DNA of 64,000 nt from an uncultured cyanobacterium. GTDB lineage: Bacteria; Cyanobacteriota; Cyanobacteriia; PCC-6307; Cyanobiaceae. Below are positions 2,573 through 29,914 of this stretch, in pieces. A model generated the notes under the pieces. That model saw nothing but the letters and a program-made list of their open reading frames with translations. It ran no database searches and had not been told where the DNA came from. The DNA lies in the NCBI GenBank assembly GCA_963765575.1, contig CAVXWZ010000008.1:32001-96000 (forward strand), written 5' to 3'. Every line of letters starts with the position of its first letter. Within the stretch, counting starts at the first letter, position 1. The position numbers were made by a program, and so were the translations under genes.

Positions 2573-2587
2573 GGGTGTCGCCTCAGA

Positions 2588-2888: not shown

Positions 2889-4351
2889 ATGGCCCAGATC
2901 GTCCTGCGCGACTACCAGCAACACCTGCTCGCCGATCTCCGCGCCGCCCTCAGAGACCCACCGGCGGGTCTGCGCTGTCATGCCCACCGGCGCCGGCAAG
3001 GGCCAGACGATCGGCGCGATCGCCCGCGGCGCTGCCGGCAAGGGCCGGCGGGTGCTGGTGCTGGCCCACCGGGCTGAGCTGATCGAGCAGCTCACCGGCA
3101 CCGTGCGGGCCTGGGGGCTGGAGCCCGACGTGATCGCCCCCGGCCACCGGCTGCAGGGCCGGCAGGTCGCCGTGGGCTCGGTGCAGACCGTGGCCCGGCG
3201 CCTGGCCCAGCTGCCGCCGCCGGATCTGATCATTCAGGACGAGGCCCACCACCTGGTGGCCGGCAACATCTGGGGCCGGATCATCAACGCCTGGCCAGGC
3301 GCCCATCTGATCGGCAAGACCGCCACCCCCGAGCGGCTCGATGGCAAAGGGTTGGGCGTGGAGGCCGGCGGCTTCTTTGAAGCCTTGGTGCTGGGGCCTT
3401 CAGCGGCCTGGCTGGTGGAGCAGGGCTGGCTGGCCCGGCCCAAAGTCTTCTCCTGGCCAGGCGCCCGCAACAGCCAGGGGCATAGCCCCGGGGGGCAGGA
3501 CCCCGAGGGGCATAGCCCCGAACTCCGCCAGCGGATGGGGGAGTTCGATCTCGAGCAGGCGGCCCACGCCTTTGGGAATCGGGCCGCCATCGGCGATGCC
3601 GTCTCGCATTACCGGCGCCGGCTGCACCCGGCCACGGCCATCTGCTTCTGCTGCACCATCGAGCATGCCGAGCAAATGGCGACTGCGTTCCGTGCCGATG
3701 GCATCCGGGCTGCGGCGGTGAGCGGCAGCACCCCCGCCGAGGAGAGGAGGCGCCTGATCGCCGGGCTGGGCACGGGTGAGGTGGAGGTTCTCACCAGCTG
3801 CATGATCATTTCCGAGGGCACCGACATCCCCTCGGTGGGCGGCGCGATCCTGATGCGCCCCACCGCCAGCCTCAGCCTCTATCTGCAGATGGTCGGCCGC
3901 GCCCTGCGGCCCGCACCCGGCAAGCACGAGGCGGTGATCCTCGATCATGTCGGCAACGCCCACCGCCATGGCCTGCCCACCGATGAGCGGCAGTGGAACC
4001 TGGCCGGAAGGCGGCGCCGGGAAGGTGTCTCCATCCCGATCAAGGACTGCCCGCTCTGTTTCTGCAGTTGTCCCAGTGCTGCGCAGGTGTGCCCGGACTG
4101 CGGCCACCTGTTCCTGACCGAGCGAGCGCGATGAGCAGCGGCGCGGGATCCAGCAACTGGAGGGCGAGCTGGTTGAAGTCAAGGGAGCAGCCCGCCACCG
4201 GCCCCAATCCAACCAGCAGCAGAGGCCCCGGCGCACGCACCCAGCAGCCGGCTGCCGCACCTTCGAGCAGCTGCTGGAGCGGGAGCACGAGCGGGGCTAC
4301 AAGAGCGGCTGGGCCAGGCATGTGTGGGCGGCCAGGCAGCGAAGTACTTAA
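2889..4351 (+). CDS. Phage-type SF2 (DEAH) helicase with C-terminal Zn ribbon; frameshifts near 2955 and 4128
   Basis: LRDYQ Q-motif, PTGAGK, DEAHH, TATP, QMVGRALR, CPLC..CPDC; final frame ends GYKSGWARHVWAARQRST*. Confidence 0.85.
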
Positions 4352-4794
4352 TCCCTGACTGGCTTGCCGCCTGCTCCCAGGAGTTCAGCCTCCAGGCCCA
4401 GCTGTTGGGCCGCGGCCACAAACGGAGCATCCAGGCTGCAGAGGGTGGCGCCACGGCCGCTGGCGATGGCCAGGTGCAAGGCGTCGGCCGCTCGCAGGGA
4501 CGTGCTCCAGCCGCGCAGGCAGGCGTTGGCATTGCGGAAGTCCTGCGACTCCAGTTCCAGCACCAGCAGGCCCGGCGCCAGGCTGCGCTCATAACCCTGC
4601 AGCACCGCCTCGGCTTGGGCCTGGGTTAGGGCCTTGGTGCGCACCTTCAGGCCGAGGGCGGAATGCAGCTCAGTGACACTCCATGAGCTGATCGCCAGCG
4701 GTGCACTGGCCTCAGCGAGAAACGCCGTCGCCGTGGCGGAATGCGCTTCCGGCGTCAGCACCGCCAGCAGCACGCAAGTGTCGATGTAGAGCAT
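4348..4794 (-). CDS. vapC: Type II TA toxin, VapC (PIN domain)
   Basis: MLYIDTCVL N-terminus, LRAADALHLAIA, SLD; coupled to the upstream antitoxin. Confidence 0.9.
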   Translation of the reverse strand: MLYIDTCVLLAVLTPEAHSATATAFLAEASAPLAISSWSVTELHSALGLKVRTKALTQAQAEAVLQGYERSLAPGLLVLELESQDFRNANACLRGWSTSLRAADALHLAIASGRGATLCSLDAPFVAAAQQLGLEAELLGAGGKPVRD

Positions 4795-5030
4795 CAGGCG
4801 CCGGGCTCATCCCGCAACGCCCGCATGGTCTCCACGCCGCTGGTCGGCTGCTCAGGCAAGGAGGCGCGCAGGGCCTCGAGTTGCGGCAGCAGATCACGGA
4901 CGCTGCAACGCGGCACCAGCTCGGCGATGGCCTTGCCGCGGCGGGTGATCACCACCGCCTGCCCAGCCTCCACCGCATCCAGAAGGCTGGAGAGCTGGGT
5001 CTTGGCTTCTGCCACCGTCACCTGCACCAT
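4794..5030 (-). CDS. Type II TA antitoxin, Phd/YefM family
   Basis: VTVAEAKTQLSSLLDAVEAGQAVVITRRGKAIAELVP. Confidence 0.9.
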   Translation of the reverse strand: MVQVTVAEAKTQLSSLLDAVEAGQAVVITRRGKAIAELVPRCSVRDLLPQLEALRASLPEQPTSGVETMRALRDEPGA

Positions 5031-5082
5031 GGCCGTTGACCACCTAGATGACCAACTCTAGGCCGGGTGCGCGGCACAGAAG

Positions 5083-5120
5083 CAGGGGGCATGGCCTTCT
5101 CCCAGCGAGCACGACAACCA
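5083..5120 (+). repeat. Diverged copy of the VRR-NUC gene 5' end (RBS and first codons; source 6763-6802)
   Basis: caggGggcAtggcctTct--cccagcgaGcacgaCaAcca vs caggAggcGtggcctCctcccccagcgaAcacgaGaTcca: 32/38 identical with one 2-nt gap. Confidence 0.75.
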
Positions 5121-5132
5121 ACCATCGACTCA

Positions 5133-5153
5133 GCCGCTCGTCAGCGCAGCACT
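5133..5153 (+). repeat. Diverged copy of the SF2 helicase 3' end (source 4328-4348)
   Basis: gcc gct cgt cag cgc agc act vs gcg gcc agg cag cga agt act: both encode AARQRST and all 6 differences are synonymous. Confidence 0.7.
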
Positions 5154-5193
5154 TGCTCCCTACTGGGATGGCTACGCGCGGTCAGAGGCCTTA

Positions 5194-5218
5194 GCACTGA
5201 CAGCATTGCCGTCAGCGC
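5194..5218. promoter_or_regulatory. Inverted-repeat operator candidate upstream of the FitA-like antitoxin
   Basis: GCACTGAC-N9-GTCAGCGC, imperfect inverted repeat just upstream of the ATG. Confidence 0.45.
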
Positions 5219-5233
5219 AAGCGAGAGTCGTCA

Positions 5234-5470
5234 ATGACCACGCTCACGATCCGCAACCTCGACGAGCACACCAAGGAGCAGCTGCGCATTCAGGCCGCCC
5301 GCCATGGTCGATCGATGGAGGAGGAAGCCCGCACGATCCTCCGCTCCGCCCTCGAAGCCCGGCAGCCCCCCGCAGGTGGCAAGGGCCTGGGCAGTCGCAT
5401 CCATGCACACTTCGCCCTGCTCGGCGGCGTGGAGCTGGAGCTGACTGAGTCCTCCTCGCCAACCCTTTAA
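5234..5470 (+). CDS. FitA/StbC-like RHH antitoxin (orphan, no toxin follows)
   Basis: MTTLTIRNLDEHTKEQLRIQAARHGRSMEEEARTIL; its end runs into the convergent GNAT gene. Confidence 0.85.
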   Translation: MTTLTIRNLDEHTKEQLRIQAARHGRSMEEEARTILRSALEARQPPAGGKGLGSRIHAHFALLGGVELELTESSSPTL

Positions 5471-5967
5471 CCGCCGGCGATGCCCTGCAGATCCTTGAGC
5501 AGCACGAACAGGTGCAGCGGGTCAGTGGGCGAGGGCCGGAAGCCGAAATGCTCGTAGAAACCTCGGGCCCGTTCATCTTTGGCATGCACCGCCATGGCGC
5601 GGATGCCGGCGATATCGGCCGCCGCCAGCGTCCGAACGATCGCGTCTTTCAGCAAGGCGGCGCCAAGGCCCTTCCCCTGGTGCTCAACCGCCACGGCCAG
5701 CCGGGCCAGCACCATCAGCGGAATCGGATGCCGCGCCAACCCCTTGCTGATCCGCTCTGGTGCCTGCTCTGGACTCACCTCACCTACCACCAGGGTGTGG
5801 AAGCCAACGACGACGTTGCCATCCAGCGCCACGTAGGTGCGGCTGGCCCGCGCTCGCTGATTCGCCAGGGCAAAGCGGACCAGGAAGCGGTTCAGGGGTT
5901 CCTCACCACAATCAAAGGCCTCCAAGGCATGGTTGGCCTGGAGCGGTTCGATCCGGTAGCGGCTCAC
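5467..5967 (-). CDS. GNAT acetyltransferase toxin (AtaT/TacT-like)
   Basis: FDCGEEPLNRFL, LARLAV..QGKGLG, VHAKDERARGFYEHFGF; GTG start overlaps the antitoxin stop. Confidence 0.9.
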   Translation of the reverse strand: MSRYRIEPLQANHALEAFDCGEEPLNRFLVRFALANQRARASRTYVALDGNVVVGFHTLVVGEVSPEQAPERISKGLARHPIPLMVLARLAVAVEHQGKGLGAALLKDAIVRTLAAADIAGIRAMAVHAKDERARGFYEHFGFRPSPTDPLHLFVLLKDLQGIAGG

Positions 5968-6278
5968 TCGGCGCCACCAGCAGGCGGCTGTTCCGCAACA
6001 CCCCGCTCCAGCACGCTCGGCTCCAGCAGCAACCGCGCCAGCCGCGGATGCTGCTGGGGTGGAGCATCCAGGGCGGCCACGAAAGCCTCCCACTGCTGCC
6101 CATCGAGCTGGAAGCTCTGCCGATCAGCCAGGGTTTCGGCCGCGCTGGCCAGGGCGCTCTCCAACACAAACTCACTCACGCTGCACTGGGCCGCCGCGGC
6201 TGCCCGCTGCAGGGTCTGCTTGGCACCGGGCGTCAGCCGCAGGTCAAGCTTCTCGCTTCTCAAAGGAGCTGAGGTCAT
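5964..6278 (-). CDS. DUF1778 (TacA/AtaR-like) antitoxin
   Basis: RSEKLDLRLTPGAKQTLQRAA..SVSEFVLESA..WEAFVAALDAPP. Confidence 0.9.
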   Translation of the reverse strand: MTSAPLRSEKLDLRLTPGAKQTLQRAAAAAQCSVSEFVLESALASAAETLADRQSFQLDGQQWEAFVAALDAPPQQHPRLARLLLEPSVLERGVAEQPPAGGAE

Positions 6279-6321
6279 CACGGCACCGTCTTCCGCCACC
6301 TTAGCCCTGCCCGCCCGACAA

Positions 6322-6331
6322 TGTCATGACA
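6322..6331. promoter_or_regulatory. Palindrome TGTCATGACA, probable operator for the DUF1778-GNAT module
   Basis: Perfect 10-bp palindrome in the divergent intergenic region. Confidence 0.4.
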
Positions 6332-6397
6332 ACTCCGCCGGTCCTTCACAGAATCGTCAGCAGCAATACGCTTTCACGGACTGGTAGCAGGAGCGCC

Positions 6398-6640
6398 ATG
6401 GCCTCCGTTTCAGCCGCAGAAGCCCGCAAGCGGCTCCACGCCCTGATTGACGAGGTGGAGCAGTCCCACGAGCCGGTGCTGATCATTGGGAAGCAGGGCA
6501 ACGCTGTTCTGCTGGGGGAAGATCACTGGCGCGCAATCTGGGAGACGCTCCATCTGGTCTCGATTCCCGGGATGCGCACGTCGATCCTCGATGGCATAGC
6601 CACCGAGGTGACTGAGTTGAGCCGAGAAGCGCTTTGGTGA
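6398..6640 (+). CDS. yefM: YefM-family antitoxin (orphan, yoeB absent)
   Basis: SAAEARKRLHALIDEV..HEPVLIIGKQGNAVLL..WETLHLVSIPGMRTSI; followed by a hairpin (6642-6673), not a toxin ORF. Confidence 0.85.
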   Translation: MASVSAAEARKRLHALIDEVEQSHEPVLIIGKQGNAVLLGEDHWRAIWETLHLVSIPGMRTSILDGIATEVTELSREALW

Positions 6641-6770
6641 CCTCGGTCGGCAGCAGCTGGCTGGCCGACCGAGCTATTGCCCGCCGAGGCAATTCGGCGA
6701 ATACCTGACACGTTTTGGCAAAACAGCCAATACCTGCCAATCGCTGACAACCAGCCCGGCAACAGGAGGC

Positions 6771-7149
6771 GTGGCCTCCTCCCCCAGCGAACACGAGATC
6801 CAGCAGCGCATCCGCCTGGCCTGCGGCCGCGGGGCGGTGCGGCTCTGGCGGAACAACACCGGCGGTCTGGTCGATCAGCAGGGGCGCTTCGTGCGCTTCG
6901 GGCTGTGCAGGGGCAGCAGCGACCTGATCGGCCTGCGGTCGCTGGAGGTGACGCCCGATCTGGTGGGTCAGCGGATCGCCCAGTTCGTCGCCCTGGAGAT
7001 CAAGACGCCCCATGGCGCCGTCAGCCCGTGAGCAGCGGGCGTTTCTGGAGCTGGTCGAGCAGCTCGGGGGTGTGGCGGCCGTCTGCCGCTCCGTCGAGGA
7101 GGCCGAGCAGGCGCTCGCCAAGAGGAGTCACACGCAGTCCTGCCGCTGA
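6771..7149 (+). CDS. VRR-NUC domain nuclease; frameshift near 7029
   Basis: SEHEIQQRI..RNNTG..GSSDLIG..FVALEIKT, continuing EQRAFLELVEQLGGVAAVCRS. Confidence 0.85.
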
Positions 7150-7328
7150 TGGATCCGGCGGAACTGCAGCGGCGGCTCAGGCGGCTGGCCCAGGCCCACC
7201 CCGGCGAGCACCCCTACACCCTGGCTTTGAGATTGCAGGTGGAGACAGGGAAGGTGATCACTGGCCAGCAGGCCAAGCACATCCTCAACAGGCTTGGTGA
7301 TGACCTGTCCAGACATACCAAGGCATGA
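7149..7328 (+). CDS. Small hypothetical protein, 59 aa (below the ORF track cut-off)
   Basis: MDPAELQRRLRRLAQAHPGEHPYTLALRLQVETGKVITGQQAKHILNRLGDDLSRHTKA; ATG overlaps the VRR-NUC TGA. Confidence 0.6.
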   Translation: MDPAELQRRLRRLAQAHPGEHPYTLALRLQVETGKVITGQQAKHILNRLGDDLSRHTKA

Positions 7329-7391
7329 CAGGCTCTGGCTGCGCTTGCCAAGTTTGTATTAGCTTCCCGCTAAGAACTCGGAATTCAGATC

Positions 7392-8112
7392 GTGGTCGTC
7401 ACCTACGCGGAGCTGCTTGAGCACCAGGAGGAGAACCGCGCATGCATTCGGTCGCATGCTGCTCAACTGGCGCCGGGGCAACGGTTGGACCCAGTACACC
7501 GCCTGCAGCTGGGCGGAAGAGGTGGGCTTCGAGACGATCTCCTACGGCAACCTCTCGGTGATCGAGCAGGGCAAGGCCGGCGAGCTGCGCCAGAAGGCTT
7601 TCTGGCAGCTGGGAGAACTCAACCGCCGCATCGCCGACCAGGACTGGGGCTCTGTGAAGGATCAGGCGATCAAGGAGAAGCTCGAGGGCGCCGTTCCTCT
7701 CGGGGACAACGACTGCCCGGTCTGGACGCCGCTGGAGTTCTGGGCCTGCTACTGCGGTCTGCGCGAGGTGCCGGATGCCTTCCGCACCACACCGGCCCCC
7801 ACCATCGGCCAGCGCAAGGCCACGGAGCTCTCGAGCAAGTGGCGCAACCAGATGCGCCGCGTGGTCGACGAGTGCGGTCTCGAACCCAGCGACGCCCTCA
7901 ACTCCCTGGCGGCAGAAGCCAGCGAGGAGCACCGCAAACGCTTCTATGCGGTCCTCACGGGTTTTGGCGACTACAAGCCCGAGGAGCTCGCTCCCCTCTG
8001 GATCGAGGGGGACTCGTATCAGCCCAAGCGCTGGCTGGACCAATGGGAGGCCGCGAACCGCCAGCCACGCAAACCCGGCAGCCGCAAGGGCAAGAAGCCA
8101 GTCTCGGCCTGA
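7392..8112 (+). CDS. Putative XRE-type HTH regulator; probable frameshift near 7440
   Basis: AFGRMLLNWRRGNGWTQ..ISYGNLSVIEQGK resembles an XRE HTH. Confidence 0.55.
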
Positions 8113-8202
8113 TGGCTAGGAATTAACAGCCGCTACTCATGCGGCTTCCAGCGGAAAGCCCTAAGATCCGGATCAGCGGGCAACCGCCCGATCTGATTCC
8201 CC

Positions 8203-8960
8203 ATGGTCACACCGTCCAGGCCCTTGGAGGCCCAGTGTCATCACCCCCCTGAGCAACAGCTCACCCACGCCCTGGCCTGCTTTCAGGCCGAGGTATCCGC
8301 CATCTCCTCCCCCGACCTGGGCGCCGTCGCGGAAGCTGCCCGACCTGCCTTCCGCCAGGGCATCGGCTGGTTCGCCCAACTGGGCGAGCAGCACGGCCGG
8401 CCCAGGCTGCAGGTCACGGTGAGGCATGCAGCGGGTGCCGAGCTCAGCAGCGAGGCCTGGGCCGATGAGCCCAGCGCTCTGTCGGACATGACCGGCTTGA
8501 TGCTGGCCATGCTGCTGGGCATTCCCGTGTCCGCCCAGGCTAGGGCTGCAAAGCTCTGTTCTGATGTGGAGCAATGCGTGGCCGACAAGCCTGAAGGCCC
8601 GCTGGTGCCTGCGGATCGGCCGGAGCCCGATGGCGAGTCGGAAGCACCAGACCAGCACACCCAGGCGCTGTCCAGGCCCAGGCCAGCAGTGGTGGCACCC
8701 CCGATGGGAGCGGCGATCCAGCCTTACTTCCCCTGACGCCGGAGGAGATCAGCGGCTATCACCGCCGCGTGCTGGATCTGCCGCAGGCCTCCCGCCGGGA
8801 GCTCACCCATGCGTTCCGCGAGCACTTCCAGGTGCCGCGCAGCGCCCGCTCGATCGGTGATCGCATCACCCAGCGCCAGCACGGCGACTTCATCGAGCGC
8901 TTCCTCGAGGAGGTCCAGGGCCAGGCGCTGGAGAACGTTCCCTCGCCGCCAGCCGCATGA
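8203..8960 (+). CDS. ERF-like single-strand annealing protein candidate; frameshift near 8725
   Basis: LTHALACFQAEV..DLGAVAEAARPAFRQGIGWFAQ..LQVTVRHAAGAELSS resembles the ERF N-domain; lies next to an SSB. Confidence 0.45.
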
Positions 8961-9202
8961 GCAGCAGCCATCGTCCCAGGCCTCCCCGTCGCTATGGGGA
9001 GCAGCCCCGCTCAGTGGCCGGCCGCCACTTCATCCAGACCCAGGTGCGCACCGACGTCTACCTGCGCATCCGCGAGCTGATGGAGGCCCGCAACCTCTCA
9101 GCCAGCGGAGCGGTGCACCACCTGCTGAGGGAGCGCTTTGGCCTGCCACCGCTTCCTCCCTTCGATCAAGACCCCATGTCGACCGATTCACCCCATGGCT
9201 AA
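8957..9202 (+). CDS. Small hypothetical DNA-binding (RHH-like) protein
   Basis: IQTQVRTDVYLRIRELMEARNLSASGAVHHLLRE; ATGA overlap with the upstream gene. Confidence 0.5.
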   Translation: MSSSHRPRPPRRYGEQPRSVAGRHFIQTQVRTDVYLRIRELMEARNLSASGAVHHLLRERFGLPPLPPFDQDPMSTDSPHG

Positions 9203-9788
9203 AGACCTGTTTCGCACGCCCCTCGCCCCGGTGCGCTGGGCCCACCTGATCACCCCCCGCCATCAGCTCGATCGGAGCAAGCCGCTGGCCTGGACCTGTG
9301 ATCTGCTCCTTCCCAACGCCGACGAGAAGGCCCAGGCCTTTCTGCTGGCGATGGAGGACCAGTTCATCGCCCTGCACGGCAGCCGTAAGCGCCGGGCGGA
9401 GAAGGGCTTCCCCTGGAAGGCCGACAAGGACAAGCCCAGCGAGCTCACCGTGGTGCGCTTCAAGATCCCGCAGTTCCAGCGGCGCGACGGCTCCCTCTCG
9501 GAAGGGCCCCGCATCGTCGATGCCAAGAAGCAGCCCTGGGATGGGGCCGCCATCGGCAACGGCTCGAAGGTGATCGTCGCTTTCGACATCTACGACTGGG
9601 ACGGCGAGAACGGCTGCGGCATGACCTTCCAGCCCAGGGCCGTCCAGGTGGTCGAGTTCGTGCCCTACGAGCAGGTCGATCCCACCGACGGCTTCGACGA
9701 GCTGGATGGCTACTCCGCGGCCAGTGCTCCAGCCGGCTCCGGCTCCAGCGGCTGGGCCGCCGATGTCGACGAGGAGGCACCGTTCTGA
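9195..9788 (+). CDS. T7 gp2.5-like ssDNA-binding protein
   Basis: FRTP..RWAHL, PRIVDAK..IGNGSKV, AVQVVEF; acidic tail ending DEEAPF. Confidence 0.8.
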   Translation: MAKDLFRTPLAPVRWAHLITPRHQLDRSKPLAWTCDLLLPNADEKAQAFLLAMEDQFIALHGSRKRRAEKGFPWKADKDKPSELTVVRFKIPQFQRRDGSLSEGPRIVDAKKQPWDGAAIGNGSKVIVAFDIYDWDGENGCGMTFQPRAVQVVEFVPYEQVDPTDGFDELDGYSAASAPAGSGSSGWAADVDEEAPF

Positions 9789-10138
9789 TGACGCACCTCC
9801 ATAGCGTCCGCGGCGGCGTAGGCGGCGGCCGGCCACCAGAGGGGCAAACCCCAGCTGCCGGCCTTCTGCCGCACCCGCCGGCCCACCACCACCGTCACGG
9901 TGAGCAGCCTGCGGTGCATCTACCGGCTGCTGCTGCTGGTCCTGGTGTTCCAGCTGAGCACCCTGCTGCTGGTGATCGCCGGGCCTGTCCCGCCGCGGCT
10001 GCCCCCGGCCACAGCCACCAACGTCCTCCGCCCCGATGCCGGCACTGCCGCCGGTGGGGCTCCCTTCGTCGTGACACCGCTTCCAGATCGATGAGCAGAA
10101 CAACGACCTGGCCCTGTCCACCAACGCCCCTCGTCCCG

Positions 10139-10381
10139 ATGGATCACCTCTCCCTCGTCTCCCGTTCCTGGAACGGCACACCGATCTCACGGCGCTTCAC
10201 CGATGGCTACGTCACTGCCACAGCGATGTGCAAGGCGAACAAGAAACGGTGGTCTGACTACCGCGAGTCAGACCGCTGCCAGCAGTCCGTCGATGGTGCT
10301 CCCCGCCAGGTCAAGAGCAACCGCCGCTCCTGGTTGATCAACACCTTCGAGCGCTTTGGCGCTCTGGTGGCAGGAGGCTGA
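10139..10381 (+). pseudogene. Truncated KilA-N domain gene
   Basis: WNGTPISRRFTDGYVTATAMCKANKKRWSDY, then lacks the distal GTWVHP part of the domain. Confidence 0.7.
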
Positions 10382-10617
10382 TGGACACCCCAACACCGAC
10401 ATCCCGCCAGCGGGTCTGGATCAGCACCGCCGAGGCCTGCGAAGTGCTGGGCATGAGCCGAGAGTCCCTCCGCCAGCTGCGGCTGCGGGGAGTACTGCAA
10501 CCCGGGAAGCACTACCGCCGCTGGGGCTGCACCCAGGGCCGTGGGCCGTTGCAGTGGCACCTTGAGAACGTGGAGGCCACCATCACCGGTTGGAGCCGGC
10601 GCCACCTGAGGCAATAA
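10381..10617 (+). CDS. Excisionase-like HTH DNA-binding protein
   Basis: WISTAEACEVLGMSRESLRQLR..LQPGKHYRR; last gene before the att region. Confidence 0.75.
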   Translation: MDTPTPTSRQRVWISTAEACEVLGMSRESLRQLRLRGVLQPGKHYRRWGCTQGRGPLQWHLENVEATITGWSRRHLRQ

Positions 10618-10656
10618 AAGCGTTGCGACCCCATGGGATCAGCAGGCACTGTCCTG

Positions 10657-10959
10657 AACCCGATCACGTCCCCCTCTCCTCTAATCGGGGATCGGGTTGC
10701 GTGATCGGGTTGTTGTTTGGGCCCTGGTCCTGCCGGCGCGGTGACACCCCGATCCAGCACCAACTTTTGCTCCGGGTTTGCTCACGTCCCCGCTCCAAGC
10801 AGTCCTGGAGGGCCCGCCCAGGCCGAGGTTGAGCAGATCACTGATCCACAGATCAGCGATGACTCTGCGGGTTCGCCAGAGCCAAATTCCGAGGCGGGGA
10901 CTGGAGCGGGCGAGCCAGATAAGTGAGCAAGGCGGCGATTTGCTCACCTGTTTGCTCAC
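10657..10959. repeat. Two families of short repeats, candidate integrase arm-type sites
   Basis: AACCCGATCACG (10657) with its exact inverse at 10700 and GATCGGGTTG twice; TTTGCTC(AC) pairs near 10766/10777 and at 10939/10951, plus inverse GTGAGCAA at 10923. Confidence 0.6.
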
Positions 10960-10989
10960 ATCCCCCTTGGCCAATCCCTGAAAAGTCAG

Positions 10990-11063
10990 TCGGGGCGACA
11001 GGATTCGAACCTGCGACCTAGTGCTCCCAAAGCACCCGCGCTACCAAGCTGCGCCACGCCCCG
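10990..11063 (-). tRNA. trnP: tRNA-Pro (TGG)
   Basis: CGGGGCGTGGCGCAGCTTGGTAGCGCGGGTGCTTTGGGAGCACTAGGTCGCAGGTTCGAATCCTGTCGCCCCGA folds as a cloverleaf. Confidence 0.97.
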
Positions 11064-11195
11064 AACGGGCTCAGCATACGGACTGAAAGATCCGGTAAGA
11101 CCTTCGCGCCCGGGCGGTCACGGCTCGGTCACAGGCCAGCGCTTGTGTTGGAGCTGCCCCCCAGCCAGGGGGCCGTTCCTCACCCCGCCTCAACC

Positions 11196-11615
11196 ATGAC
11201 GATCCTCCAAAGCCTGCGTGCCTCGGCGCCCCGACTGGCCCTGGCCGCCGGACTGCTGCTCCCCTTGTTGGCCCCCACCCAGGCCCAGGCCCAGCCCTAC
11301 GGCCGCGGCTGGCAGCGCGGCTATCGCTCCGTGCCGGTGCAGCGCTGGCAACCGGCTCCGTACCAGCAGCAGCAGCGGCGTTTCTATGACGACCCCAGCA
11401 TCCAGGCCTACGGCGGCCAGCCGGTGGTCTACGGCCCCGACGCCCGGGCGCAGCGCTGCAACCAGGGCCGCCTGGTGGGCGGACTCCTGGGCGGCGGCGC
11501 CGGTTATGCCCTGGCCAACGGCCGCGACCGGGTATGGGCCACGCCGCTGGGGGCTCTGCTCGGTTCCCAGATGGGCTGCAACGTCGGCCAGGGCAATGCA
11601 CCACTGCCCTGGTGA
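11196..11615 (+). CDS. Exported glycine-zipper protein
   Basis: Signal peptide; CNQGRLVGGLLGGGAGY..PLGALLGSQMGC. Confidence 0.7.
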   Translation: MTILQSLRASAPRLALAAGLLLPLLAPTQAQAQPYGRGWQRGYRSVPVQRWQPAPYQQQQRRFYDDPSIQAYGGQPVVYGPDARAQRCNQGRLVGGLLGGGAGYALANGRDRVWATPLGALLGSQMGCNVGQGNAPLPW

Positions 11616-11618
11616 AGC

Positions 11619-12020
11619 TCAGCTCGCCACGGCGATGCAGTCGATCTCCACCCGGGCCCCCTTGGGCAGGGCTGCCACCTGCACACAGGCCCGGGCCGGG
11701 GCCACCCCGGCAGCAAAGCGTTCGGCGTAGAGGGCGTTGACCCGCTCGAAATCGGCCAGGTCGGCCAGGAACACGGTGGTACGCACCACCTGGGCAGGCG
11801 AGAGCCCGGCTGCGGCCAGCACCGCGGCCAGGTTGTCGAGCACCTGCCGGGTTTCGGCCTCCACATCGCCGCCGCCCACCAGCACGCCGGTGCGGGGATC
11901 GAGGGCGATCTGGCCGGAGCAGAACAGCAACCCGCCAGCTCTCACGGCCTGGTTGTAGGGCCCCACCGGTGCCGGCGCGCCGGCGGTGTTCACGGCCTGG
12001 GCTGACTCCGCTGGGTTCAT
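11619..12020 (-). CDS. ridA: RidA family enamine/imine deaminase
   Basis: APAPVGPYNQAV, SGQIALDP, PARACVQVAALPKGARVEIDCIA. Confidence 0.92.
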   Translation of the reverse strand: MNPAESAQAVNTAGAPAPVGPYNQAVRAGGLLFCSGQIALDPRTGVLVGGGDVEAETRQVLDNLAAVLAAAGLSPAQVVRTTVFLADLADFERVNALYAERFAAGVAPARACVQVAALPKGARVEIDCIAVAS

Positions 12021-13078: not shown

Positions 13079-13130
13079 CGTTACAGTCCGCTCAGCGGTC
13101 CAGTTCCATGATCACCGCTGCCGTCCCTGC

Positions 13131-15647: not shown

Positions 15648-15654
15648 ACCCGGC

Positions 15655-16431
15655 TCAGGGCCCTGGCGCCAGCGCCGCCGAGCCGGGCGCCAGCGGCAGC
15701 TCCTCCAGCCAGTCGCCCAGGCAGGCCGCCAGCCGCCCGGGCATCTGCAGCATCGGCAGGTGGCCCGCCCCCTCCAGCACCCTGATCTGGTGCCGCGGTG
15801 CGTAGCCCGCCAGATGGCGCACGTAGCGGGGCTCCATCACGGTGTCGCGGCTGCCGGCGATCCAGAGGCTCGGCACCGTCAGTTCGCTGGTGAGCAGCGG
15901 CAGGGCGCCCACGGCGCTGCGGCGCAGGCTGCAGGCCAGCAGTCCCCGGGCCGCGTGCAGGTCGGCGAGCAGGGGGCTGCGCAGGCCATCGCTGCCGGGC
16001 AGCTGCAGCAGCCAGCGCGGCCGCCAGCGCAGGATCAGGCTGCCGCCGCGCCGCACCCGCGCGAACGCCCTCGGCTGGTACACCCCTCCGCCGGCGGCGA
16101 TCTGCACCACGCCCGCCAGTTGGCCACCGAGCTGGCGGGCGGCATGCAGGGCGATGCTGCCCCCGAGGGAATGGCCCACCAGCACCACCTGGCCGCCATG
16201 GCGCTGCCGGCACTGCTCGGCCAGCCAGGCGCCGTAGCTGGCCAGGCTGGGCTGAAGGCCGCGGGGCCGCAGGCTGCCGCCGAACCCGGGCAGATCGGGG
16301 CTCCAGAACGGCCAGCGGGGCTCCAGCTCGCGGGCCAGGGGCTGCCACAGCCGCCCGGACAGCAGCCAGCCATGCACCCCCACCAGCAGCGGGCGGGCTG
16401 GGGTGGGAACGTCGCCGGCAGGGATCTCCAT
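15655..16431 (-). CDS. Alpha/beta hydrolase
   Basis: HGWLLS, DLPGFG, GHSLGG, GAGHLPM. Confidence 0.85.
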   Translation of the reverse strand: MEIPAGDVPTPARPLLVGVHGWLLSGRLWQPLARELEPRWPFWSPDLPGFGGSLRPRGLQPSLASYGAWLAEQCRQRHGGQVVLVGHSLGGSIALHAARQLGGQLAGVVQIAAGGGVYQPRAFARVRRGGSLILRWRPRWLLQLPGSDGLRSPLLADLHAARGLLACSLRRSAVGALPLLTSELTVPSLWIAGSRDTVMEPRYVRHLAGYAPRHQIRVLEGAGHLPMLQMPGRLAACLGDWLEELPLAPGSAALAPGP

Positions 16432-16464
16432 CAGTCAGGATCGTGCCACCCCGTCTGCGCGGCC

Positions 16465-16953
16465 GTGCCCCCGGTGGACCTGCTCACCTCGCTCTATGGC
16501 ACCGGTCATCGCCGCTGCGAGACCCCCAACGCCCAGCTCAGCCTGGTGCTGAGCAGCGAGCGGCCGATCGATCTGTTTGAACTCGAGCAGCTCTGCGATG
16601 CGGTGGGCTGGAGCCGCCGCCCCGTGCGGCGGGTGCGCAAGGCCCTCCAGAACAGCCTGCTGCGGGTGGGTCTGTGGCGCCACGATCCGCGCCTTCCCCG
16701 GCTGGTGGGCTTTGCCCGCTGCACCGGCGACGGCGTTGTGGAGGCCACGGTCTGGGATGTTGCCGTGCACCCGCACTACCAGGGCGCCGGGCTGGGGCGC
16801 TCGCTGATGGACTACGTGCTCGAGCAGCTGCGCGACCTGGAGGTGCAGCGGGTGAACCTGTTTGCCGACCCCGGGGTGGTGGGCTTCTACCAGGGACAGG
16901 GCTGGGAGCTGGAACCGCTGCAGCGCCGCTGCGCCTTCTGGTACGCCCCCTGA
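16465..16953 (+). CDS. GNAT N-acetyltransferase (Ycf52-like)
   Basis: LEQLCDAVGWSRRP, WDVAVHPHYQGAGLG, AFWY. Confidence 0.85.
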   Translation: MPPVDLLTSLYGTGHRRCETPNAQLSLVLSSERPIDLFELEQLCDAVGWSRRPVRRVRKALQNSLLRVGLWRHDPRLPRLVGFARCTGDGVVEATVWDVAVHPHYQGAGLGRSLMDYVLEQLRDLEVQRVNLFADPGVVGFYQGQGWELEPLQRRCAFWYAP

Positions 16954-16964
16954 GCGAGGCCGGC

Positions 16965-17648
16965 TCAGGCGTCGTAGTAGCGCCGGGCCAGCAACTCCAG
17001 GGATTCACCCCGCCGCCAGGCCCGCCGCAGGCCCGCGTTCTCCACGGTGGTGCGCCACACCCCCAGCCGCCGCCAGCGGCGCTCATCCACCGACACCGCC
17101 GCCCCCAGGCTGCGCAGCCGGGCCCGCCGGCCCAGGCGCTGGGCCAGATCCAGGTCCTCCATCAACGGCAGGGGGCGCATGCCGCCGGCGGCCTCGTAGA
17201 GGTCGCGGCTGAGCAGCAACCCCTGGTCGCCGTAGGGCAACTGGCGCCAGCGGCTGCGCAGGGCCACGCCCAGTTCCACCAGGCGCAGGGCGGGATCCCG
17301 GCCGGCAATGGCCAAATCGAAATACCAGGCCAGCCCGTCGCCGGCCCCGATCGCCTGCCCAATCCGCTCGGCCCAGCGCAGCGGCAGCTGCACGTCGGCG
17401 TGGAGCAGCAGCAGCCAGGCACCCTGGGCCTCGGCGGCACCGAGGGCCAGCTGGCGGCCGCGGCCTGGGGCGCTGTGCAGCAGCCGTGCCCCGGCCAACC
17501 GGCTCACCAGGGCCGTGGCGTCGTCGCTGCCGCCATCCACCACCAGCACCTCCCGCACCAGCCCCGGCCGTTGTGCCAGCTGGGCCAGCAGTGCCGGCAG
17601 CCGGGAGCTCTCGTTGCGGGCTGCGATCACCGCGCTCAGCCCGTCCAT
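16965..17648 (-). CDS. Family 2 glycosyltransferase (TIGR04283-like)
   Basis: VVDGGSDD, LLHAD, LPYGDQGL, PLMED. Confidence 0.88.
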   Translation of the reverse strand: MDGLSAVIAARNESSRLPALLAQLAQRPGLVREVLVVDGGSDDATALVSRLAGARLLHSAPGRGRQLALGAAEAQGAWLLLLHADVQLPLRWAERIGQAIGAGDGLAWYFDLAIAGRDPALRLVELGVALRSRWRQLPYGDQGLLLSRDLYEAAGGMRPLPLMEDLDLAQRLGRRARLRSLGAAVSVDERRWRRLGVWRTTVENAGLRRAWRRGESLELLARRYYDA

Positions 17649-17654
17649 GGCCGC

Positions 17655-18266
17655 TCAGCGCCAGGCGGCCAGGTCGGCCGGCCGGTCGAGGTCGTGGCGG
17701 CAACTGAGCCACTGGGGCTCGAGCCCCAGCCTGGCCGCCGCGCGGCTGGTGTGCTCCAGCACCCCGGGGCCACCCCAGGGGATGCCGCTGAACAGCTCCG
17801 GCCACGACCCATTCAGGCCGATCAGCCAGTAGCCCCCATCGGCGGCCGGCCCGAGCACCAGCGGGCCCGTGTCCAGGGCCCGGAAGGCCCGCTCCAGTTC
17901 GGCGGCCTCCAGCTGCGGCAGATCACTGCCCACCAGCACCAGCTGCTGGATCCCCCGGCGGCGGGCCTGCAGCACCTGGCGCTGCAGCCGCAGCCCGAGG
18001 CTGCCGGGGCCCTGCGGCACCGCCCGATCACATCCCAGTGCCGCTCCCCAGCGCCCCAGGGCCCGGGGGGCCAGCCCCTGGACCGCCAACACCAGCTCGA
18101 AGCCCAGGTGCCGCCGCGCCTGCGCGGCCACGGCGCAGGTGTGGCGGCAGAGTCCGCGTTGCACGGCGGCGGCCCGCCGCCGGCCGATGCCGGCGGCCAG
18201 CCGGCTCTTGCAGCGGCCTGGCGCCGGCCAGCGCGCCATCACCACCAACTCCCGCGTGGCCGTCAA
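17655..18266 (-). CDS. DUF2064 / TIGR04282-like transferase
   Basis: PAPGRCKSRL, GSDLP, GPAADGGYWLIG. Confidence 0.85.
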   Translation of the reverse strand: MTATRELVVMARWPAPGRCKSRLAAGIGRRRAAAVQRGLCRHTCAVAAQARRHLGFELVLAVQGLAPRALGRWGAALGCDRAVPQGPGSLGLRLQRQVLQARRRGIQQLVLVGSDLPQLEAAELERAFRALDTGPLVLGPAADGGYWLIGLNGSWPELFSGIPWGGPGVLEHTSRAAARLGLEPQWLSCRHDLDRPADLAAWR

Positions 18267-19411
18267 CCCTGCCGGGGCAGTTCGGCGGGCTTGAGCGTGA
18301 GGCTGCGGCTCTCCTCGCCGCGCTGCACAACGATGACCAGCTCGTCCCCCACGTTCACCCGATCCACGCCCAGCTGCACCTCCGAGGGATTGCGCACCGC
18401 TTCGCCCCCCACCTTCTCGATCAGGTCGCAGGGTCGGATGCCGCCCCGGTCGGCGGGACTTTCGGCCATCACGTCCACGACCACAACCCCATTGACTTCA
18501 GGCAGGCGGCACTGATCGGTGCTGGCGTTGATCTCGCGGGCCAGCTGGGGGGTGATCGCCTGCAGTCGCACGCCGATGTAGGGGTGGCTGGCGTAGCCCC
18601 GCTCGAGGATCTGGGCCGCGATCTGGCGCGCCACATCGATCGGGATCGCGAAGCTGAGGCCGGCGCCGGGGGCCTGGCGGATGGCGGTGTTGATGCCGAT
18701 CACCTGGCCGCGGTCGTTGATCAGTGGTCCGCCGCTGTTGCCCGGATTCACGGCGGCGTCGGTCTGGATGTAGGGCACCCGCTGGCCCTCCCCCACGGCG
18801 TTGGTGCGCTGGATGGCACTGATGATTCCGGCGGTCACGGTGTTGTCGAGCCCGAGGGGGTTGCCGATGGCGATCGCCCATTCGCCCGGCCGCACCCGGG
18901 TGGAATCGCCCAGCGGCGCCACCGGCAGCTTGCTGGCCACCACCTTCACCACTCCCACATCGGTGAGCGGGTCGGTGCCGAGCACCTTGCCGCTGAAGCT
19001 GCGGCCGTCGGGAAGGGTGATGGTCACGTCACTGGCGCCCTCCACCACGTGGGCGTTGGTGAGGATCACCCCGTCGGAGCGGGTGATGAAACCCGAGCCC
19101 TGGCCCTGCTCCTGCTGGATGGTGGGTCCGCGGCCGAACAGCCCCCCCAGGGGATTGATCACCCGCTTGGTGGTGTCGATCCGCACCACCGCCGGCCCCA
19201 CCTTCTCCACCGCCTCCACGATCACGTTGCTGCTGGCCTGCAGCGGTGCCGCCGGGGGGGCGTCGCTGATGCGCACCGTCTCTTCGCCGCTCTCCCCCGG
19301 CAGGCGCGGCAGGCCCGGGATGGTGCGGACGCCGCAACCGCTCAGCACGGCCAGCGCGGCGATCAGACCAGCCAGGCCGGCGTGGCGGTGGCTGGGAATG
19401 GGGCGAGGCAT
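18263..19411 (-). CDS. HtrA/DegP-family serine protease with PDZ domain
   Basis: TNAHVV, GNSGGPL, C-terminal PDZ; LSGC lipobox. Confidence 0.92.
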   Translation of the reverse strand: MPRPIPSHRHAGLAGLIAALAVLSGCGVRTIPGLPRLPGESGEETVRISDAPPAAPLQASSNVIVEAVEKVGPAVVRIDTTKRVINPLGGLFGRGPTIQQEQGQGSGFITRSDGVILTNAHVVEGASDVTITLPDGRSFSGKVLGTDPLTDVGVVKVVASKLPVAPLGDSTRVRPGEWAIAIGNPLGLDNTVTAGIISAIQRTNAVGEGQRVPYIQTDAAVNPGNSGGPLINDRGQVIGINTAIRQAPGAGLSFAIPIDVARQIAAQILERGYASHPYIGVRLQAITPQLAREINASTDQCRLPEVNGVVVVDVMAESPADRGGIRPCDLIEKVGGEAVRNPSEVQLGVDRVNVGDELVIVVQRGEESRSLTLKPAELPRQG

Positions 19412-19515
19412 GGAGGACGGGGCGGGTGCGGCGGATGCGCAGGCATTCCGCTTCATTAAAGACCGTGCACCGCGATGCCTCTGCGTAGAGTTCGGCACTT
19501 GCGTGGCGTTGATCG

Positions 19516-20981
<1,466 letters not shown>

Positions 20982-20998
20982 GCCGGGGCGCGGGCCAA

Positions 20999-21499
20999 TC
21001 AGGTGCAGCCCTGCACGGAGATGCGATAGCTGAAGCCGAGAGCGTTGGGATCATCGCTGGCGCCCACCTTGAAATTCATCTGGCTGGCCTGCTTCTCCGG
21101 CACGGCGGGGAAGGGGCCGAACTCTTGGCCTTGTCCGATCGGTGGATTCATGGTGGCGTTTATCACCTGAAGGCTGGTGCCATCGGTGAACTTCATGAAT
21201 CCCTCCACGGGATATTTCGCATTGGCATCGGAGGAATTTGCCGTGAAGAAGAACTTGTAGCTTTTGTACGGCTGATCCACGATGAAATCGGTGTTCCAGT
21301 TCGTCTTGCCGAGCAGCTTGGCCCTGCCCACTGTCTTCGACACCACAGGATTGCTGCCATCCCCACCGATCGGTTGGAGGAAGGTGCAGGTTTCTGCGTG
21401 GGCGGCACCGGCGGTCGCCAGTGGCAGGCTGCAGGCCAGGGCCAGCATGGGGAGATGGTGGCCGAAACCGGAGCGGAAACTGGCGAGTCTGTTGATCAT
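20999..21499 (-). CDS. Exported beta-rich hypothetical protein, paralog A
   Basis: Signal peptide ending AHA-ETC; C-terminal ISVQGC; homologous to 21727-22230. Confidence 0.8.
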   Translation of the reverse strand: MINRLASFRSGFGHHLPMLALACSLPLATAGAAHAETCTFLQPIGGDGSNPVVSKTVGRAKLLGKTNWNTDFIVDQPYKSYKFFFTANSSDANAKYPVEGFMKFTDGTSLQVINATMNPPIGQGQEFGPFPAVPEKQASQMNFKVGASDDPNALGFSYRISVQGCT

Positions 21500-21533
21500 G
21501 GTGGCTGAAATACTGGCTTTGAAATCGTAGATG

Positions 21534-21659
21534 AGCGGCCGGGCCGGATCGAGACCCTCCACTTCACCCTGGAACACCCGGCTGGCGGTGATGTCCTCCG
21601 CTTCGATCGTCATCAGGTCGAGCTTCGTCACCGCCGTGCCCATGCCGCTGAACAGGCGG
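21534..21659. repeat. Exact 126-bp copy of the cbbX 3' region (22291-22416)
   Basis: Base-by-base comparison, no mismatch seen. Confidence 0.95.
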
Positions 21660-21715
21660 CAGGTGCAGCAGGTGCGCGACCTGCTGCAGATCGATTGCCG
21701 CCGCCGGCGCTGAGC
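21660..21715. repeat. 56-bp copy of the dnaA 3' end (20928-20983)
   Basis: 55/56 identical (ATT vs ATC); includes the stop codon. Confidence 0.95.
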
Positions 21716-21726
21716 TGGCCCTGGGA

Positions 21727-22230
21727 TCAGTTGCAGCCCTGCACCGAGATGCGATAGCTGAAGCCTGTCGCATCAGGATCTTTGCTGGCGCCCACCTTGA
21801 AGTTGATCTGGCTGGTGGTCTTGCCGGGAACAGCCTTGAAGGGCCCGTACATCTTGCCGGTGCCGACTGGAGGACTGATCTCTTCATCAAAGAGATTGAG
21901 ACTGGAATTGTCCGTGAACTTCATAAACCCGCGTACGGGGTATTTGGCCTTGGCATCGGTCGAGTCTGCAGTGAAGAAGAGCTTGTAGCTCTTGTAGGGC
22001 TTGTTGACAGCGAAATCGGTGTCCCAGTTGGTGCGGCCCAGCAGCATCCCCAGGGGACCGACCTTTGGTCGCTCAACCCGTTTGGAGACGATGTCGGATG
22101 TTCCGTCTCCACCGATCGGCTTCAGGAAGGTGCACGTCTCCGCCCGGACACTGCCAGCGGCCACAACCGGCAGGCTGCAGCCCAGGGCCAGGGGCAGCAG
22201 ATGACGAAGAAACATGGAGGCGGGGCGCAT
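21727..22230 (-). CDS. Exported beta-rich hypothetical protein, paralog B
   Basis: ETCTFLKPIGGDG..TNWDTDF..FSYRISVQGCN; roughly two-thirds identical to paralog A by eye. Confidence 0.8.
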   Translation of the reverse strand: MRPASMFLRHLLPLALGCSLPVVAAGSVRAETCTFLKPIGGDGTSDIVSKRVERPKVGPLGMLLGRTNWDTDFAVNKPYKSYKLFFTADSTDAKAKYPVRGFMKFTDNSSLNLFDEEISPPVGTGKMYGPFKAVPGKTTSQINFKVGASKDPDATGFSYRISVQGCN

Positions 22231-22262
22231 GGCGCGTTTGGGCTGTGAGACTGCTTCTTGAG

Positions 22263-23219
22263 TCAAGCATCCTGGTGGGAAGCCTGAATCAGCGGCCGGG
22301 CCGGATCGAGACCCTCCACTTCACCCTGGAACACCCGGCTGGCGGTGATGTCCTCCGCTTCGATCGTCATCAGGTCGAGCTTCGTCACCGCCGTGCCCAT
22401 GCCGCTGAACAGGCGGTTGGCCTGGCGCATGCGGGCCCGGTCGATGGCGTTGCGGATCGAGCGGGCATTGGCGAAGAAGGGCAGCTGCATGCGTCGCTGG
22501 ATGTAATCAGCAAAGGCGCCGCGTGCCTCATCGCTGAAGCGGTAGTTTTCGGCTGCGAGGATCAGCTGGGAGATCGCCAGCAGCTCGTCGCCACTGTAAT
22601 CCGGGAAATCGATGTGGTTTGCCACCCGCGACGAGAGGCCTGGATTGCTCTGGTAGAACACATCCATACGCTCTTTGTAGCCGGCGAAGATCACCACCAG
22701 ATCATCGCGGTTGTTCTCCATCACCTGCAGCAGGATCTCAATGGCTTCGGCTCCGTAGTCCCGCTCGTTCTCAGGCCTGTAGAGGTAATAGGCCTCATCG
22801 ATGAACAGCACTCCACCCATGGCCTTCTTGAGCATCTCGCGCGTCTTCGGGGCGGTGTGACCGATGTACTGACCCACCAGGTCGTCGCGGGTGGCGGTGA
22901 CCACATGGCCCTTGCGCACATACCCCAAGCCGTGCAGGATCCTGCTCATGCGCTCGGCCACGGTGGTCTTGCCCGTGCCGGGCCTGCCCGTGAACGACAT
23001 GTGCAGGCTGGGGGGAGCGGTGTCCAGCCCCACCTGCTGCCGGGCCCGGTTGACCACCAGCAGCGCCGCGATCTCGCGGATGCGGGCCTTCACCGGTTTG
23101 AGGCCCACCAGCTCCCGATCGAGCTCATCCAGCACCGCCTGCACCCCGGCACCTTCATACGCCGCCCGCAGGTCCACCACTGCTGGCCCATCCAGCGGTG
23201 GCCTGGCCGGGGATGTCAT
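22263..23219 (-). CDS. cbbX: Rubisco activase CbbX (AAA+)
   Basis: [43 protein letters not shown]. Confidence 0.96.
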
Positions 23220-29912: not shown

Positions 29913-29914
29913 CC

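Follow-up and report, generated by a model that had tools for sequence, protein, structure and literature searches.

Adjoining alternative cassettes and two-sided flank scars at variable slots of a picocyanobacterial genome

The window, a stretch of 64,000 nucleotides from an uncultured cyanobacterium (genome G000), contains two loci at which a pair of conserved flank genes (A and B) encloses two cargoes (X and Y) separated by a scar of flank fragments (B' and A'). By sequence comparison, the order A-X-B'A'-Y-B is present at both the helicase-VRR-NUC locus (locus 1) and the dnaA-cbbX locus (locus 2; Table 1). This architecture, put forward in the original prediction, is confirmed by alignments, shuffled sequences and the recurrence of the locus 1 spacer in relatives. 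Numbers with C denote contigs of G000, and the remaining G and L numbers denote relatives' genomes.

Table 1 Flanks, cargoes and scar fragments at the two loci in the window (positions are those of the window).
Feature	Position	Strand	Basis or remark
Locus 1, flank A: superfamily-2 helicase	2889..4352	+	Pfam ResIII/Helicase_C, PHROG 16
Locus 1, cargo X: PIN toxin and Phd/YefM antitoxin (vapBC-type)	4348..5030	-	Pfam
Locus 1, B': decayed VRR-NUC ribosome-binding site and first codons	5076..5135	+	match to VRR-NUC start
Locus 1, A': last helicase codons (about 5133-5153) and upstream region of helicase-fitAB allele	5133..5233	+	
Locus 1, cargo Y: fitA-like antitoxin (toxin lost), TacA-GNAT pair, YefM-like antitoxin (toxin lost)	5234..6640	.	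Pfam
Locus 1, flank B: VRR-NUC gene	6771..7130	+	85% identical to G015 gene
Locus 2, flank A: dnaA	19516..20981	+	Pfam Bac_DnaA; frameshifts in assembly
Locus 2, cargo X: small cyanobacterial protein, signal-peptide-like start, lineage mosaic	20999..21499	-	sliding identities
Locus 2, B': cbbX 3' fragment	21531..21659	-	99% identical to cbbX 3' end 22288-22416
Locus 2, A': dnaA 3' fragment with stop codon	21657..21718	+	95% identical to dnaA 3' end 20925-20986
Locus 2, cargo Y: diverged homologue of X	21727..22230	-	long branch, different clade from X
Locus 2, flank B: AAA ATPase, cbbX-type	22263..23219	-	Pfam AAA, AAA_lid_6

The helicase gene of locus 1, whose frame is broken near 4120-4135 in the assembly, appears from its sequence context to belong to a decayed phage- or satellite-like island, with a primase and a Gp2.5-like SSB as neighbours and a tRNA-Pro border at 10989-11063; no integrase or tRNA repeat was found at this island. 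A terminase-like frame to the left of the island was judged by eye only. The VRR-NUC frame carries a premature stop (7029-7031) in the assembly and has no Pfam match, and its intact homologue in G015 is Pfam VRR_NUC. Between the cargoes, positions 5074-5135 align to the VRR-NUC start (6754-6816) with a score reached by none of 500 shuffles. The profile score of the B' fragment is 22.9 bits, whereas the null never exceeds 7.2; the fragment is also found in G009, G170, G303 and L098. The helicase fragment is weak when taken alone: its score (5115-5233 vs 4250-4400, a window picked after seeing the claim) was reached by 2 of 1000 shuffles, the whole spacer aligned differently to the helicase end with a score reached by 37 of 500, and a helicase-end profile misses it at 11 bits. 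However, positions 5133-5236 score 68–97 against the six helicase ends that precede fitA, with no score above 44 for the remaining 22 ends, and these best matches lend support to the otherwise weak fragment. The predicted short matches near 5.1 kb thus hold against shuffled sequence in their VRR-NUC part, whereas the helicase part draws its backing from the relatives. The spacer is 207/209 identical in G170, a one-contig genome of another genus; microhomology is not readable at the decayed joint.

At locus 2, flank B is presumably cbbX, Pfam itself giving only AAA and AAA_lid_6. Contigs of runs X3 and X4 lack the dnaA frameshift at 20452. Cargo X has no Pfam match, its Atlas clusters are unnamed and cyanobacterial, and its core groups with G002 in a tree (support 95/84). 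The cbbX 3' fragment reads TAC at the position of the TAG stop of six close relatives, and is therefore in frame into cargo X. B' and A' overlap by three bases (CGG) at the joint, and their cores differ from the flank genes at 0/126 and 1/56 bases, respectively. Donor and resident flanks are indistinguishable here, so that the direction of the event is unreadable. The cargoes are 74–77% alike as genes and identical at 104 of 160 aligned residues (65%) as proteins, and they sit in different clades of single-copy orthologues. Among the dnaA loci of 29 relatives, both flanks were seen in 26; 23 of these hold one homologue and three hold none, and the A'/B' repeat occurs in none of the 26.

A third case lies on contig C4 of the same genome, in the order TPR gene, SH3-mlaE-mlaD, bcp'-TPR', other genes, and bcp (peroxiredoxin). 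Comparison of bcp' with bcp shows 61 differences over 346 bases, 43 of them at third codon positions, and since this synonymous divergence continues right up to the joint, a foreign bcp was used in it. The joint is a 14-base word that matches TPR at 14/14 and bcp at 13/14 positions. The end of TPR' resembles the sister genome G008, whereas the end of the full TPR gene resembles G012, and mlaE-mlaD adjoin bcp in G012 and G011. In a tree built from bcp 3' ends, bcp' grouped with no donor, and the B'A' pair is absent from the TPR-bcp side regions of 20 relatives.

Among 104 helicase-VRR loci examined, 60 had both the helicase end and the VRR start; nine of these slots are empty, 36 hold a single cargo and 15 hold several. 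Flank fragments were found in none of the 36 single-cargo slots but in 7 of the 15 multi-cargo slots, representing about five independent events, and truncated cargo genes occur in several of the latter. A vapBC-type pair is the sole known cargo in 13/60 slots, and fitAB alone occupies the slot in L237, L267 and L270. With these X-only, Y-only and empty alleles, here and at the dnaA loci, the proposal that X and Y already existed as alternatives for the same slot is supported. Only two independent two-sided B'A' joints were seen in this slot. One of them, in G015, lies between yefM-yoeB and vapBC; both cargoes are whole, as they are at dnaA, and the joint falls within CCGGCTGG, which matches the helicase at 8/8 and VRR at 7/8 positions. 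One-sided scars of 45–297 bases with variable joints are present in L100, L105, L259 and L273. Internal yefM-type helicase tails (L100, L112, L120, L129 and G022) were excluded from the A' count, since the upstream region of the cassette itself overlaps them, and a degenerate VRR pattern gave no matches in the genome contigs.

The microhomologies at the three readable joints measure 3 (CGG), 8 (7/8 on one side) and 14 bases (13/14 on one side). No common motif links CGG, CCGGCTGG and the 14-base word, and the spacers are gene fragments lacking attC/attI-like repeats, in line with the prediction that no att sites are involved. Longest shared words are nine bases between the TPR gene and bcp, and ten between the dnaA and cbbX ends. 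Three integrase-family (PF00589) matches were detected in the genome (C2:325205, C8:98264 and C1:347582), none of them at the three loci; ComEC and DprA genes are present. A self-comparison of the genome at 36 bits returned 17 pairs in B'A' order vs 16 in control order, and the two real cases were distinct only once multi-copy repeat regions had been removed by inspection. A looser self-comparison, in which more than 100 pairs arose by chance and locus 2 collapsed to a single alignment, was dropped. Repeats that we take from their translations to be cpcBA, large repeat proteins and, at the end of a contig, ligA-like were set aside as other repeat kinds. Relatives' DNA (1.9 Mb in all, scanned in pieces of at most 20 kb) yielded no further B'A' case in 0.69 Mb (the TPR-bcp sides in 20 relatives plus 0.4 Mb of G012) or in 1.20 Mb of G002, G013 and G008. 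The expected recurrence of the pattern is upheld by the third locus and by the independent events in relatives, but not by this wider scan.

Our preferred reading, to which we assign a probability of roughly 0.55, is that two pre-existing alleles were joined by one homologous crossover and one out-of-register microhomology joint. Each site is a variable slot between two conserved genes, and two alternative alleles of the slot would have met in one cell; an ordinary homologous crossover in a flank gene, combined with an out-of-register joint at short microhomology, would leave the B'A' scar. The second allele may arrive as linear DNA, by transformation or from a co-resident element or chromosome copy, and the joints would land at near-random places. 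Recombination would remove long duplicated flanks while both flank genes have to remain whole, which would leave the short scars in place. Cassettes that are usually alternatives at one spot now adjoin, and the incoming one was likely added rather than swapped, by ordinary recombination. Post-segregational killing by toxin-antitoxin systems is established, and by extension retention of an old antitoxin probably favours addition over replacement for such cargo. The joints lie inside the homologous flank, a position that the simplest anchor model does not predict.

Judging from sequence matches, the fragments correspond to the allele of the adjoining cargo, which indicates an origin from a different allele and not from decayed self-duplication. 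The A' of G015 scores 62–76 against vapBC-type helicase ends vs 41 against its own helicase, and together with C4 this supports an origin in different alleles over plain duplication. The same two cases speak against an A'-Y-B' tandem duplication formed at microhomology, one copy of which was later swapped for a foreign allele by double crossover: in G015, A' represents the downstream cargo's allele and not the element's own helicase, and the C4 joint used the foreign bcp. We regard that sequence of events as quite improbable, even though the locus 2 fragments are near-identical to the resident genes and near-identical tandem duplications do occur in these genomes (G016, 2515 bases, 99.7%). Closure of a donor A'-cargo-B' into a circle at microhomology, followed by a single crossover in A' or B', would produce the same final structure, and it agrees with a C4 B' that is foreign up to the joint and with A and A' ending in the states of different alleles. 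It would also fit the VRR body of G015, which soon after its start is 97–100% like the yefM-type allele (+60 to +360), as though the crossover had been confined to the short B'; this is not decisive because the vapBC-type is closer beyond +460. However, a linear donor or second chromosome copy gives an identical product, the circle requires a crossover within 47–66 bases in G015 and 56–126 at dnaA, and it cannot yield the 8 of 15 multi-cargo slots without a detectable flank fragment, often with truncated cargo genes, which a linear anchor and an illegitimate joint explain. We therefore consider the circle unlikely.

Two further readings concern the dnaA-cbbX locus, and we hold both to be very improbable. 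If it were an old tandem duplication in which the two cargo copies drifted apart on the spot and gene conversion held B' and A' to the sequences of cbbX and dnaA, the homology of X and Y would follow, and a tandem pair that we take to be mgtE-like, with the same spacing in G000 and G013 and patchy 94–99% identity, suggests that conversion occurs. Yet X and Y fall in different single-copy orthologue clades, the gene is duplicated in none of 26 relatives, and loci with unrelated cargoes receive no account. The stack could instead be a long-read assembly chimera of two strains' alleles, given the frameshifts in the assembly and at least one false-looking duplication around G-rich junk (C8:113252-114015). 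None of the contigs listed from runs X1–X4 (contigs, not raw reads) bridges 21657-21660, and among the best 150 matches to the 190-base junction in 400 family genomes (368 weaker ones besides) only G000 spans it. Against a chimera, contigs of run X2 match X (21189-21343), the X-B' border with the lost stop (21416-21566) and Y (21756-22050) with 0 differences, locus 1 recurs in separately assembled genomes, and a three-base joint would be unlike an overlap-type misjoin. Contigs near-identical to cargo Y occur in all four runs, and thin coverage of cargo X in X1, X3 and X4 hints at Y-only strains, absent cover in itself being no evidence.

Turnover at bacterial slots between core genes is usually thought of as replacement. 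The scars instead show addition, resolved to the single base, and the slot is available in its empty, single and stacked forms, so that the growth of toxin-antitoxin and defence hotspots without integrases becomes testable. They also carry a warning that tandem 'paralogues', such as the pair between dnaA and cbbX, can be captured alleles and not in-place duplicates. A bolder and rather doubtful extension is that picocyanobacteria routinely build integrase-free arrays by taking up alternative alleles of variable slots via small A'-cargo-B' circles or inter-copy crossovers, both alleles becoming fixed in a cell as in a permanent heterozygote. If so, B'A' scars would allow additive gene transfer to be dated and traced across the genome, and cargoes could loop out again through the copied flanks. 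Two-sided B'A' scars in picocyanobacteria were not described in the literature searched, most subscription papers being outside its coverage.

Integrons accumulate accessory genes, including toxin-antitoxin pairs, at one place. The loci described here differ from them: the stacks are shallow, the joints vary, and there is neither an attC-like repeat nor an integrase next to the array. With stacks mostly two units deep and close precedents in print, the original term 'integron-like' was overstated, and the interpretation behind it is partly supported as a whole. Additive slot capture with a two-sided scar is a variant of an already known displacement-array kind. Displacement in the T6SS effector-immunity arrays of Vibrio cholerae and in the CDI orphan arrays of Acinetobacter is attributed to homology-facilitated illegitimate recombination: a homologous anchor and an illegitimate joint bring a new module into a fixed slot and push the old cargo aside, with no integrase known, and the authors already drew the comparison with integrons (PMC5361080, PMC6336857). 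Both features are found here, namely a homologous anchor in the conserved flank of alternative alleles and an illegitimate joint at short microhomology. In those arrays the old effector gives way and only immunity genes or toxin tips are left, whereas here both cargoes can remain intact between flanks that are housekeeping or replication genes, and the scar combines fragments of the two flanks in an order opposite to that of the flanks themselves.

Insertion with long target duplication likewise places cargo within long, variable direct repeats of unique sequence with no mobility gene; it involves restriction-modification genes, mostly in naturally competent species including Microcystis (PMC2853133). 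A/A' and B'/B are comparable direct repeats of more than 30 bases of unique sequence without a mobility gene. The published insertions enter an empty site and duplicate one stretch (PMC2853133), whereas in the two-sided stacks the slot was already occupied, copies of both flanks surround it, and no restriction-modification genes are carried; only one-sided cases, e.g., fghA-gidA, show a single repeat copy at an empty allele and one duplicated stretch. Merodiploids generated by transformation in Streptococcus pneumoniae arise by unequal crossing-over that creates a tandem duplication holding two alleles of one locus, at long pre-existing repeats (IS861) and over about 100–900 kb (PMC3784515); by comparison, the units here are 0.7–3 kb, the joints 3–14 bases, and long pre-existing repeats are lacking. 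Heterogeneous duplications in eukaryotes, such as that of mosquito ace-1, are also reported to fix two pre-existing alleles side by side on one chromosome, but in diploid animals and for homologous alleles only, whereas the cargoes brought together in these cyanobacterial slots can be unrelated (10.1101/2023.05.10.539957).

The original prediction described two cargos separated by a fragment of the downstream flank (B') followed by one of the upstream flank (A'), and this arrangement is present in the sequence at both loci named: between a helicase and a VRR-NUC gene (locus 1) and between dnaA and cbbX (locus 2). The genome (G000; 11 contigs, 2.7 Mb, 69% GC; window on contig C8) is affected by frameshifts and by one or more duplications that look spurious, so an artefactual origin needed testing. 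Within the repeat cores of locus 2, 0 of 126 and 1 of 56 bases are mismatched, and the two genes between the repeats are a mere 74–77% alike; at the protein level 104 of 160 residues are identical, and third codon positions account for 85 of the 157 base differences. Of the two pieces near 5.1 kb at locus 1, the VRR-NUC-like one scores above 500 of 500 shuffled sequences, whereas the adjoining helicase-like one is weak alone, reaching 2/1000 in a post hoc window but no significance over the whole spacer.

Locus 1 is a variable slot within a phage- or satellite-like island. Related VRR genes occur in 66 of 401 family genomes, and the sources of the loci were genomes of the genus and the family (40 family-genome matches retrieved) together with metagenomes and viral contigs. 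Helicase end and VRR start were both seen in 60 of 104 loci examined, comprising 9 empty, 36 single-cargo and 15 multi-cargo slots. Single cargos were yefM-yoeB (15), vapBC (13), fitAB (3), an ATPase-like gene (3) and unknown genes (2); relatives with one cargo alone between these flanks, as anticipated, thus exist for vapBC and fitAB. Internal flank fragments of at least 11 bits were found in 0 of 36 single-cargo but 7 of 15 multi-cargo slots (maximum 7.2 bits in reversed and opposite-strand controls). The slot counts may include duplicate rows, and kin are not independent; the seven represent about five events. The other eight multi-cargo slots yielded no detected fragment, and truncated cargo genes are frequent there. 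With its many toxin-antitoxin pairs and unknown genes, the slot may be a defence hotspot.

The window's own stack recurs in relatives G009 and G303 (84–95%), on stretch L098 and in G170, which belongs to another genus, is assembled as one contig and matches the spacer region at 207 of 209 bases; this rules out both an artefact and a recent origin. The A' region of the window's stack scores 68–97 against six helicase ends preceding fitA and at most 44 against the other 22. A separate, fresher and differently ordered stack is found in G015 (helicase, yefM-yoeB, 69-base B', 47-base A', vapBC, VRR). Here A' scores 62–76 against vapBC-type helicase ends and 41 against the genome's own helicase, B' tracks yefM-type alleles, and the joint sits in a word with an 8/8 helicase and a 7/8 VRR match. 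One-sided scars occur in the same slot, both of VRR starts (about 200 and 250 bases; L100, L105) and of helicase ends (297, about 120 and about 45 bases; L259, L273).

At locus 2, both flanks were seen in 26 of 29 relatives, with one cargo homologue in 23, none in 3, and no repeated flank in any of the 26. The dnaA and cbbX tree places G000 next to its sister genome G008. The core of X clusters with G002 (95/84), in a different clade from G008, although the spacer and the 3' end of X are G008-like; Y forms a long branch close to G010/G027. These positions indicate cargo alleles of separate history. Among the matches listed, no relative's cbbX end exceeds 92% identity to this region of G000, so the identical B'/B pair reflects same-species ancestry or conversion, of unreadable direction. 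B' carries TAC at the position of the TAG stop in six close relatives. Contigs of sequencing run X2 show zero differences to X, the X–B' border (stop-loss bases included) and Y; among the matches listed, no sequencing-run contig bridges the joint, and no junction-spanning match was found elsewhere in 400 genomes. The X/Y protein family had no Pfam match.

Strict self-comparison of G000 returned 17 B'A'-order and 16 control-order pairs, of which two B'A' pairs remained outside multi-copy repeat regions (excluded by inspection): locus 2 and C4:37256-43571. In the latter, peroxiredoxin (bcp) and TPR fragments of 347 and 124 bases, respectively, meet at a 14-base word matched completely by TPR and at 13 bases by bcp. 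Of 346 bases compared in the bcp fragment, 61 differ (43 third-position, one stop), and this mainly third-position divergence, reaching the joint, indicates a once-functional foreign allele; a tree resolved no donor. The mlaE-mlaD genes adjoin bcp in G012 and G011, and the TPR fragment end is G008-like, that of the whole gene G012-like. The stacks are real and recurrent in one mobile-element slot and two chromosomal loci of G000. No B'A' pair was seen in 0.69 + 1.20 Mb of relatives' DNA, scanned as pieces of at most 20 kb; as about one pair is expected at the rate of G000, this null result neither favours nor opposes a genus-wide habit.

Features and side observations (G000, genome of the window; other G numbers, relatives; L, DNA stretches; C, contigs)
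Location	Feature	Remark
Window 21531-21659 and 22288-22416	Locus 2 repeat	99% identity (repeat finder)
Window 21657-21718 and 20925-20986	Locus 2 repeat	95% identity (repeat finder)
Window 21499-21643	cbbX stop loss in B'	Predicted 214-codon frame, 48 codons added to X
G000:C4:46384-47022; C1 about 212500 and 273000	More distant X/Y paralogues	
Window 1-11063 and G000:C8 about 27000-32000	Decayed phage- or satellite-like island bordered by tRNA-Pro	Primase, helicase, VRR-NUC, Gp2.5-like SSB; also HTH genes, terminase-like frame
G170:C1:2202300-2205000 (L238)	Window's cargo stack in another genus, 99-100% identity	Begins within vapC, without helicase; recent cross-genus transfer
G000:C4:36444-43863 (L133, L142)	TPR gene, SH3, mlaE-like, mlaD, bcp'/TPR' scar, other genes, intact bcp	Two-sided stack
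G000:C11:6274-11856 (L139)	Esterase gene, decayed gidA-like fragment (about 10730-10813), ACP and P450-like cargo, intact gidA-like gene	Flanks adjacent in at least five relatives; likely one-sided
L188:11428-16457 (G016:C8)	2515-base tandem duplication, 99.7%, over bcp and part of htpG	Real or assembly error; at slot border shared with C4 stack
G000:C2:630078-632525; L303 (G013)	mgtE-like tandem pair, 1407-1409 base spacing	Patchy 94-99% identity suggests old duplication, similarity maintained by conversion
G000:C1:388085-390532; C11:462216-465390; C1:271872-272404	Locally repeated short stretches of gene starts or interiors next to defence-like or toxin-antitoxin genes; 266-base small-gene tandem	
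G000:C8:113252-114015; C7:1-2309; C8:373670-376417	Duplications near G-rich junk or contig ends	Resemble long-read assembly errors

Alternative alleles, allele-specific fragments and variable joints with short microhomology are the observations that a mechanism has to accommodate. A single homologous crossover in a flank gene combined with a single out-of-register joint would generate such a stack. The second allele could have arrived as linear DNA, resided on another element in the same cell or belonged to a further copy of the chromosome, and all three routes would yield the same product; polyploidy occurs in cyanobacteria, and G000 carries ComEC and DprA genes. The circle originally proposed, a donor A'-cargo-B' integrating by one crossover, would also give this product, and in its favour the VRR body of G015 is 97–100% identical to a yefM-type allele from +60 to +360. 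We prefer the linear route because it also accounts for stacks whose joints lie inside cargo. Duplication followed by later replacement of one copy fits locus 2, but not the other loci.

The original prediction further likened the stacks to an integron-like array built without a dedicated integrase. No integrase was found at the three loci and no motif common to the joints, and the stacks are not an integron. They operate like the T6SS immunity arrays (PMC5361080) and CDI orphan arrays (PMC6336857), which are attributed to homology-facilitated illegitimate recombination and have been compared to integrons. Insertion with long target duplication is known from restriction-modification genes, chiefly in competent species (PMC2853133), and pneumococcal merodiploids depend on long repeats (PMC3784515); general background is found in PMC2884548, PMC13344027 and PMC13732712. 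We found no literature account of a two-sided scar in picocyanobacteria. Overall, the stacks are mechanistically close to known processes, and what differs from these precedents is the duplication of both flanks with both cargos retained.
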